From Candidatus Bipolaricaulota bacterium (lineage in GTDB: Bacteria > Patescibacteriota > Patescibacteriia > UBA11705 > DATKZF01): a DNA stretch of 64,000 bases. Both the position numbers and the translations under genes were made by a program. Where the stretch lies: positions 423,089-487,088 of the forward strand of contig DATKZF010000003.1 in the NCBI GenBank assembly GCA_035528115.1, given 5' to 3'. A model generated the notes under the pieces. The model was not told the origin of the DNA. It made no database searches and saw only the letters and a list, made by a program, of their open reading frames with translations. Shown piece after piece: positions 27,630 through 27,697 of this stretch; position 1 is the stretch's first letter, and each line of letters opens with the position of its first letter.

Positions 27630-27697
27630 AGTGGTTACGAATAATTATGATTAAATTTAGTTACCAATGGTTACGAATTTACAAATTGGACAAATAC

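Follow-up and report, generated by a model that had tools for sequence, protein, structure and literature searches.

Arrays of short ordered words form a dispersed intergenic repeat family in an uncultured Patescibacteria bacterium

The intergenic DNA of the window (the whole stretch of 64,000 nucleotides analysed here) contains arrays of the word TTACRAAT, which are a real repeat family of intergenic DNA. The words belong to an ordered module of about 50 nt, which is placed flush against genes with a fixed polarity, is found in several related genomes and is quickly gained and lost at orthologous sites. The arrays are kin in kind to the REP/BIME/REPIN, BOX and STRR elements, yet are members of none of these families. 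The explanation favoured here, a REP/BIME- or STRR-like dispersed palindromic repeat decaying to single arms, is held tentatively, its chances being put at a little less than even.

The initial annotation had described arrays of the words TTACAAAT and TTACGAAT at seven intergenic sites, and the words were present at all seven. A search for the 20-mer ATTACAAATGGTTACGAATT, allowing up to 3 mismatches, returned four matches, all on the + strand (3761, 27660, 33880, the last one exact, and 39428), against 0.02 in shuffled sequences. TTACRAAT occurs in 23 copies in the window, 21 of them located within the 8,487 intergenic bases (13% of the total). Its density is 2.47 per kb in intergenic and 0.04 per kb in coding DNA, a 60-fold ratio, only 2 copies being contained in 55.5 kb of coding sequence. 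With the intergenic DNA itself as training set, an order-2 Markov model predicts 1.84 +/- 1.29 copies with a maximum of 7; this expectation is far below the 21 intergenic copies detected, and AT-rich k-mer bias is therefore insufficient as an explanation. In addition, TACAAAT and TACGAAT are the commonest non-homopolymeric intergenic 7-mers. Taken together, the 20-mer matches, the Markov excess and the top 7-mers bear out the proposal that the words are a family of their own, dispersed as a repeat through intergenic DNA. An assembly artefact is ruled out by L138 (ENA), an independently assembled sequence which matches the window exactly over 11.9 kb, two arrays included. Of the intergenic words, 18 are on the + and 3 on the - strand, and GC skew is positive all through this region; the excess could reflect replication direction, and the bias is not significant (six arrays) once the gene-facing rule described below is allowed for.

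The host was placed by its GroEL protein, encoded at 25986-27629(-), for which an identical sequence exists on the JGI metagenome contig Ga0307379_10000002; the window corresponds to approximately 415-479 kb of this contig. Among species-representative genomes, the closest GroEL is that of a Candidatus Falkowbacteria MAG (73% identity); the nearest named relatives are Falkowbacteria (73-77%), and other near matches carry the names Falkowbacteria, Kuenenbacteria, Uhrbacteria and Parcubacteria. Because of these relatives, the host is regarded as an uncultured Patescibacteria (CPR) bacterium, and the 'Bipolaricaulota' label attached to the identical NCBI GroEL protein is probably a binning error. 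The window has a GC content of about 43% and a GC skew which is positive throughout. A Shine-Dalgarno-like motif (GGAG, GAGG or AGGA, within -20 to -4 of the start) precedes only 4 of its 54 genes; a clear AGGAGG is seen before a few small genes, both in the window and in relatives. The recognisable promoters carry, as judged by eye, a strong TTGAC(A/T) -35 box. About 79 kb of the host genome were covered, i.e. the window and about 15 kb beyond it, the latter containing no additional array of the TTACRAAT type (A-type).

The words belong to a longer conserved module, which is common to several genomes. In the ATTYGTAA orientation it reads ATTCGTAACC-ATTYGTAAT-ATTTGTAT-(variable, 6-10 nt)-ATTYGTAACC, with five words of 8-10 bp that follow each other at intervals of about one helical turn; words are most often spaced by 10 bp (6 of 17 intervals), then by 8 and 7. 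Thirteen copies align to this single module: four from the window, two from contig L118 and one each from L101, L124, L129, L083, L095, L110 and L114. W1-W2 and W5 are nearly invariant across the aligned copies; within the word, seven of the eight positions are nearly invariant and one is two-fold degenerate. In a composite variant, a core of about 35 bp (AGGACAAGCTWGGTTTAGGTYTAA) is located between words; the three copies, namely a tandem pair upstream of clpP and a single copy past ychF, resemble modular BIME/BOX elements. Small ORFs hidden in the arrays were searched for by eye and rejected: on the gene-sense strand every ATTYGTAA word contains TAA, so that all three frames are closed, and the opposite strand contains at most an ORF of 13 codons. 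The copies found in the window are reported in Table 1, together with other repeats detected in the window and in related contigs.

Table 1. Word arrays and other repeats. Positions refer to the window, unless a contig is named; the fourth column gives clusters of TT[AG]CNAAT.
Position	Strand	Feature	Cluster	Sequence and context
3734..3789	+	Module copy	3736-3789	GGGTTACAAAT ... TTACAAATGGTTGCAAATTATTACAAAT; minus strand ...ATTTGTAACCCT-ATG, directly before the trigger factor (tig) start at 3731
3802..3827	-	Inverted partner words ATTCGTAA, ATTTGTAG	3805(-)	Pair with 3740-3769 in the tig leader; weak predicted hairpin, z -1.3
3958..3973	-	Two inverted words ATTTGTAAATTTGTAA	3958/3966(-)	Cut off from the rest of the tig array by a 123-bp GC-rich insertion (3830-3952) with ends CCTGCCTGC/GCAGGCAGG
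9920..10090	+	Two tandem composite copies, ~95 bp each (word - AGGACAAGCTWGGTTTAGGTYTAA core - word)	9923/9977/10019	Minus strand ends ATTTGTAATTT-ATG at the clpP start (9919); both copies between a predicted TTGACA-16-TAATAA promoter and the ATG
21771..21842	+	Composite copy	21771/21825/21835	Starts at the first base past the ychF stop codon; intrinsic terminator 3' of the copy at ~21864-21895
27630..27697	+	Entire 68-nt groES-groEL spacer, about seven phased words (first-noted locus)	27635-27686	Minus strand ATTCGTAACCATTGGTAAC...ATTCGTAACCACT-ATG (groEL)
33830..33855	+	Two words	33833-33898 (with next row)	Directly past the ssb stop codon, followed by a 20-bp GC palindrome
33876..33955	+	Exact 20-mer (33880-33899) and degenerate inverted partner ATTTGTTA, ATTTGTACCATT (33912-33950)		Together a predicted hairpin in the ssb-rpsR spacer, z -2.9
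39399..39446	+	Module copy	39402-39446	Flush with the H+-pyrophosphatase stop: TAA-G-GGTTACGAAT...GGTTACTAAT; intrinsic terminator 3' of the copy at ~39459-39487
6061-6158, 15285-15380, 27983-28070; L137 411-508; L156 9330-9423, 12146-12231		TTACRAGAT family
33277-33376		ATGCGAAT/ATTCGCAT word hairpin		rpsF-ssb spacer; z -3.65, polarity as in the TTACRAAT family
3830-3952, 33856-33875, 35005-35045, 41095-41136, 42400-42455, 51222-51246; L138 ~16410-16545; L083 ~3960-3985		GC-rich element		Ends CCTGCCTGCC...GGCAGGCAGG
34891-34925, 36982-37060, 42485-42520, ~2200-2260; L134 7169-7218; L138 14980-15020		(A/T)TCATG(A/G)-type heptamer arrays		Several spacers
2022-2142, 51085-51165		47-bp unit repeated 2.6 times (98% match)		Contains CTCTCCGCTTCGGTCGAGATGACAAC
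5025-5075, 45600-45680, 50990-51085		GGTAGCT/TTAGGT word arrays with inverted partners		Three divergent spacers
52581-52658, 54875-54952, 55626-55703		78-nt GGGAGG-rich direct repeat		Around a low-GC island
60367-60458, 61603-61694		92-nt repeat pair
39510-39545, 41158-41193		Duplicated promoter-like GGTTGACTGGGAGGGGTTTTGTT(T/C)GTAG(G/A)AT

All six arrays of the window start 0-5 nt from the gene on their left and have the GGTTAC end toward that gene; under random placement, the product of the probabilities of such flush positions is 7e-9. On the minus strand, the genes for trigger factor, ClpP and GroEL each have an array against their ATG; on the plus strand, ychF, ssb and the H+-pyrophosphatase gene each have one against their stop codon. 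The copies had been described as adjoining gene starts and ends irrespective of orientation: the first part of this statement holds and the second does not, because the GGTTAC end always faces the left-hand gene. Read in gene sense, the sequence before a start codon is ...ATTYGTAACC-N2-3-ATG. The form GTAACC-N2-3-ATG precedes tig, groEL, dnaB (L101) and one of the two L118 genes (L118b), while GTAA-N3-4-ATG precedes clpP, the other L118 gene (L118a) and the groEL of L135. Of the genes preceded by the word, 13 have it in sense, and the reversed orientation was seen at a single orthologous locus, ahpC; about a third of the copies lie past stop codons, in the opposite orientation. A single rule, by which the GGTTAC end points to the nearest gene, accounts for start-side and stop-side copies alike, with two exceptions, both of them arrays filling a whole spacer (the groES stop side and the ahpC start side).

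Arrays are either internal to operons (groES-groEL and ssb-rpsR spacers), or located between a predicted promoter and the tig or clpP start codon, or between a stop codon and a terminator. These predicted promoter and terminator positions suggest that all array-bearing spacers are transcribed. A promoter or UP-like element, one of three roles suggested by the initial annotation, is not supported by such locations, and the module does not contain the -35 box of the recognisable promoters of the host. A sigma-70 scan of the arrays (hexamers at 16-18 nt spacing) gave no match of at least 10/12 and one of 9/12, antisense to groEL. An ECF-type promoter (GTAAC...CGTA) was rejected as well, since in four copies, inspected by eye, the spacing departs from 16-17 nt.

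As RNA, single modules are predicted to have no structure, with z values of +1.31 in the groEL spacer, +0.40 after the pyrophosphatase gene, -0.09 after ychF and -0.34 before clpP. Modules followed by inverted words are predicted to fold as hairpins; such inverted doublets are present in the tig leader, in the ssb-rpsR spacer and in contigs L083 and L095, in the latter as a hairpin between convergent genes. The order of the inverted pairs is TTACRA...TYGTAA in all ten regions examined, nine by direct scan and the tenth, the groES leader of the window, by RNA fold; this fixed polarity is what terminal inverted repeats would give. When Rfam covariance models were used, only tRNA-Glu scored above the gathering threshold. 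At the arrays no match had E <= 5 except a far sub-threshold one to STnc50 (E 4.6, 25.8 bits against a gathering threshold of 55), whose start overlaps the last ychF words; a known RNA family was thus rejected.

A sister family, TTACRAGAT/ATCTYGTAA, forms long, near-perfect hairpins just upstream of the start codons of HU, tsaD and groES (predicted z -7.6, -5.2 and -6.2, respectively), and its arrays end 8-10 nt from the ATG, compared with 2-3 nt for the module. HU itself is encoded at 6159-6440 of the window. Heptamers of the (A/T)TCATG(A/G) type form arrays in several spacers of the window and in relatives (Table 1); in contig L093 the decamers TTGTCATGAA and TTGTTACGAA alternate in a satellite of about 1.3 kb, linking this heptamer family and the TTACRAAT family.

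The palindrome which had been reported to abut an array near 33851 was confirmed: CCTGCCTGCCGGCAGGCAGG is found at 33856-33875, between two word groups. It is the bare, 20-bp form of a GC-rich element, which looks like a separate miniature inverted-repeat element. A form of about 123 bp, of which a near-identical copy exists outside the window, interrupts the tig-leader array, and other copies are located within terminator stems beside a GGGAATGACAGACAGG motif; the CCTGCCTGCC palindrome is also found in L083. Further repeats were observed in the same region. Motifs made of a hairpin plus ATGACAA, similar to the 47-bp unit of Table 1, are present in other spacers and in contigs L155 and L156, and the 78-nt repeats surround an island which contains an MmeI-like restriction-modification gene and a Fic/RhuM gene.

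Related sequences were collected by scanning metagenomes with a pattern derived from the module. This returned 52 loci, most of which are pure decamer satellites, termite-gut repeats or chance matches, and the related contigs obtained in this way are a biased sample. The same module is present in L101, L118, L124, L129, L083 and L095, with looser copies in L110 and L114. It precedes dnaB, an exonuclease gene, ahpC and unnamed genes, and is flush with the ATG of dnaB, of two unnamed genes and of the exonuclease gene; flush placement was seen in L101, L118, L083 and L129, where the module fills the interval between a stop codon and the ahpC ATG. The pattern used for the scan did not contain the conserved middle words, nor did it require a flush position; both features are therefore independent evidence. 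The neighbours of the copies (tig, groEL, clpP, dnaB, the exonuclease gene, ahpC and unnamed genes) are unrelated to each other.

Comparison of orthologous sites revealed a rapid turnover. The groES-groEL spacer was found in four states: the module in the window, a single ATTTGTAAT word preceding the ATG in L135, a wordless stretch of 14 nt in L134, and in L137 an unrelated hairpin built of AGAGG words. The GroEL proteins of these three contigs are 86-89% identical to that of the window. The groES leader hairpin is common only to the window and L137 (GroEL identity 89%), and an A-type word follows the ychF stop codon in both the window and L134. Upstream of ahpC, TTACRAAT words are found in L129 and TTACRAGAT words, in the same orientation, in L156, from which it follows that words drift together within an array; L155, whose spacers are very short, has no spacer at this site and almost no arrays. 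These varied states indicate that the arrays are labile and that their load differs greatly between genomes.

Tandem GGTTACGAAT units, from 3 to at least 7, were also observed at one site in four related phage-like contigs with tRNA clusters (L094, L120, L121, L130), with a TTGACT -35 box about 35 nt downstream of them; this variable-number array is unrelated to the Patescibacteria module. The copy-number variation of (GGTTACGAAT) between these contigs was counted in favour of the dispersed-repeat reading. A phage origin was rejected, a scan of viral contigs having given 15 matches which look like chance pairs or unrelated operators.

Several known systems were compared with the arrays. REP, BIME and REPIN elements of gamma-proteobacteria (Bertels and Rainey 2011, PMC3116915) resemble the arrays in being short, non-coding repeats restricted to intergenic DNA, in occurring as singles and as hairpin-forming inverted pairs, in clustering as modular arrays, in their location in transcribed-looking spacers next to gene ends, and in their variation between relatives. 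TIGR arrays (Faure et al. 2025, PMC12045711) were rejected, the arrays described here being without spacers, made of 8-10-nt units and flanked by housekeeping genes. The REP/REPIN unit is a short imperfect palindrome, unlike the single modules, which are unstructured; the arrays also differ in being AT-rich and made of five phased words of 8-10 bp, and no GTAG head of the REP type was seen in them.

Cyanobacteria reportedly contain STRR (short tandemly repeated repetitive) heptamers and small dispersed repeats (Mazel et al. 1990; Elhai et al. 2008). Here too, tandem arrays of a word of 7-10 nt occupy many intergenic regions of one lineage, and several word families coexist in a genome. The spacings of 10, 8 and 7 nt over seven intergenic regions are of the STRR type, a likeness of kind and not homology. 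Phylum and words are different, and the ordered module of about 50 nt, its gene-facing polarity and the inverted partners set the present arrays apart. Pneumococcal BOX and Neisseria Correia elements are 100-300 bp long, with defined subunits or terminal repeats and target duplications. They are likewise modular or inverted-repeat intergenic elements, transcribed with their neighbours, and their RNA structures can alter expression; for the arrays of the window, transcription and folding are predicted. The module is shorter, about 50 bp, and no target duplication was found.

According to the dispersed-repeat reading, the complete form would be an inverted pair, 5'-GGTTACRAAT...loop...ATTYGTAACC-3', with the GGTTAC ends outward, and in short spacers such a pair would have its outer ends against the flanking genes. 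Loss of one arm would leave a single module, still flush with its gene, reading ATTYGTAACC-NN-ATG in gene sense before a start or TAA-N-GGTTACRAAT after a stop. Slippage would alter the number of words, and whole modules would be copied into new spacers, copies being gained and lost fast. As the spacers look transcribed, inverted pairs should fold as AU-rich stem-loops both in 5' leaders and in the intervals between cistrons, with possible consequences for the processing or stability of the mRNA, while the unstructured single arms are probably tolerated passengers. Of the three suggestions of the initial annotation, the mobile-element remnant fits best, although not in every respect. In its favour are the inverted pairs of fixed polarity, the single arms, the rapid gain and loss at orthologous sites and the similar copies at non-orthologous ones; against it, no consistent flanking target-site duplication was seen at the copies, whose doublets have outward GGTTAC...GTAACC ends, and no transposase or RAYT-like (IS200/IS605-like) gene is present among the annotated genes of the approximately 79 kb of host genome. 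Two further observations weigh against a dispersed repeat, namely that single arms are not palindromic, unlike classical REPs, and that the GTAACC-ATG spacing is tight (2-3 nt) in at least 5 copies from different genomes. Copies in different genomes are also more alike than neutral spacers should be, which could be due to selection and not to recent copying.

The tight spacing and the sense bias before 13 genes would also fit a function in the mRNA leader. The module could be a cis-acting element in which an unstructured AUUYGUAACC, 2-3 nt before the AUG, controls or regulates translation initiation without a Shine-Dalgarno sequence; possible ligands of the words are ribosomal protein S1, which is encoded at 44371-45516 of the window, and an RNA-binding protein dedicated to them, and the opposite copies in 3' UTRs would be inert or antisense partners. 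The recurrence of GTAACC-N2-3-ATG in several genomes, a single reversed locus against 13 genes in sense, the scarcity of Shine-Dalgarno-like motifs (4 of 54 genes) and a groEL leader less structured than most shuffles (z +1.31) all point in this direction, and several of the genes encode chaperones or proteases, for which high expression is expected. We nevertheless consider this explanation unlikely, because the element is not conserved at orthologous sites, with four states of the groEL spacer in four relatives, about a third of the copies follow stop codons in the opposite orientation, and the ahpC copies are reversed. In addition, the distance to the ATG is 8-10 nt for the related TTACRAGAT arrays instead of 2-3, CC at -3 to -5 is unlike the A/T-rich upstream context of the other genes, and avoidance of an upstream ATG within TTACAAATGG could by itself bias the orientation. 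Pairing of GUAACC with the 3' region of 16S rRNA appears improbable, the module resembling the conserved E. coli rRNA strand and not its complement. Copies at 3' ends, which are trailed by terminators, form predicted duplexes of -20 to -47 kcal/mol with leaders, against about -14 +/- 3 for shuffles; this complementarity speaks for a leader function, yet is automatic for one repeat present in both orientations. A more elaborate proposal is that of a portable leader cassette in a nearly Shine-Dalgarno-less Patescibacteria clade, by which AUUYGUAACC, 2-3 nt before the AUG of groEL, tig, clpP, dnaB and others, would set or regulate initiation; UUACRAAU copies between stop and terminator (ychF, H+-pyrophosphatase) could be released as 3'-end-derived RNAs which pair to the leaders in a trans-acting RNA network. 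This proposal as a whole is regarded as improbable.

Binding of a protein to the DNA itself is given an equally small chance: the arrays would be sites for a direct-repeat protein on one helix face, either nucleoid-associated or a CtsR-like stress repressor. In Firmicutes, the CtsR operator consists of directly repeated heptads at a period of 10 bp; it is found upstream of clp genes and in some species also of groESL. The dominant 10-bp spacing (6 of 17 intervals), the near invariance of seven of eight word positions, the layout GGTTACA-AAT-GGTTACG, like RGTCAAA-NAN-RGTCAAA (the CtsR consensus), and the position of three window arrays before clpP, groEL and tig are all consistent with it, and a double-stranded site would work in either orientation. 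Relatives, however, have the module before dnaB, the exonuclease gene, ahpC and unnamed genes; it is also found in the convergent spacer after ychF and before the pyrophosphatase terminator, and abuts the ATG or sits inside operons with no promoter overlap, and orthologous sites have lost it or contain other sequence in its place. A gene that could encode the regulator was not seen, and the flush, polar placement is left unexplained. The CtsR operator RGTCAAANANRGTCAAA itself was rejected, the heptad being unlike the consensus (GGTTACR here, RGTCAAA there) and the copies being located at the ATG, inside operons, at 3' ends and before non-stress genes. Similarly, the CIRCE/HrcA operator TTAGCACTC-N9-GAGTGCTAA is, by eye, absent upstream of groES in the window, L134, L135 and L137. 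CIRCE-like inverted repeats were observed by eye upstream of groES in Falkowbacteria MAGs (L002 2370-2400, L035 1810-1845); the window (27983-28195) and L137 have a word hairpin in the groES leader, without a CIRCE-like repeat.

Slightly less probable still is the possibility that the arrays are neutral low-complexity DNA, generated by local replication slippage in AT-rich spacers, with neither dispersal nor function. Other short-word arrays (CATGA heptamers, GGTAGCT, GAAAYT, AGAGG, GAGAATTGA, AGATTAAAG) do fill many spacers of the host and its relatives, copy number differs between related contigs, and spacers turn over fast. Slippage cannot, however, produce the same ordered five-word module, non-repeated middle words included, at non-orthologous sites of several genomes, nor three composites with a common 35-bp core, nor the fixed polarity of inverted pairs. 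Finally, the word could be a DNA uptake sequence for the competence machinery of type IV pilus-bearing bacteria, given its density of about 0.4 words per kb, its presence in related genomes, the inverted pairs near gene ends and a pilus ATPase gene. This is very improbable, and was rejected, since the words are degenerate, clumped in arrays instead of spread, and not over-represented in coding DNA, where 2 copies in 55.5 kb compare with about 3 by chance (rough uniform-composition estimate).

Patescibacteria genomes are small and usually called streamlined; in the lineage described here, ordered repeats of short words fill many spacers, and a module of about 50 nt, common to several genomes, lies directly against the start codons of central chaperone and protease genes. 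No account of arrays of this kind from Patescibacteria was found in the literature searched. Should the repeats be selfish or neutral, a process generating repeats is active in these reduced genomes; a role of the module in the mRNA leader would be a clue to how genes are expressed in bacteria where 50 of 54 genes are without a Shine-Dalgarno-like motif. In both cases, the arrays are of use as strain markers, and assembly breaks are likely to occur at them.
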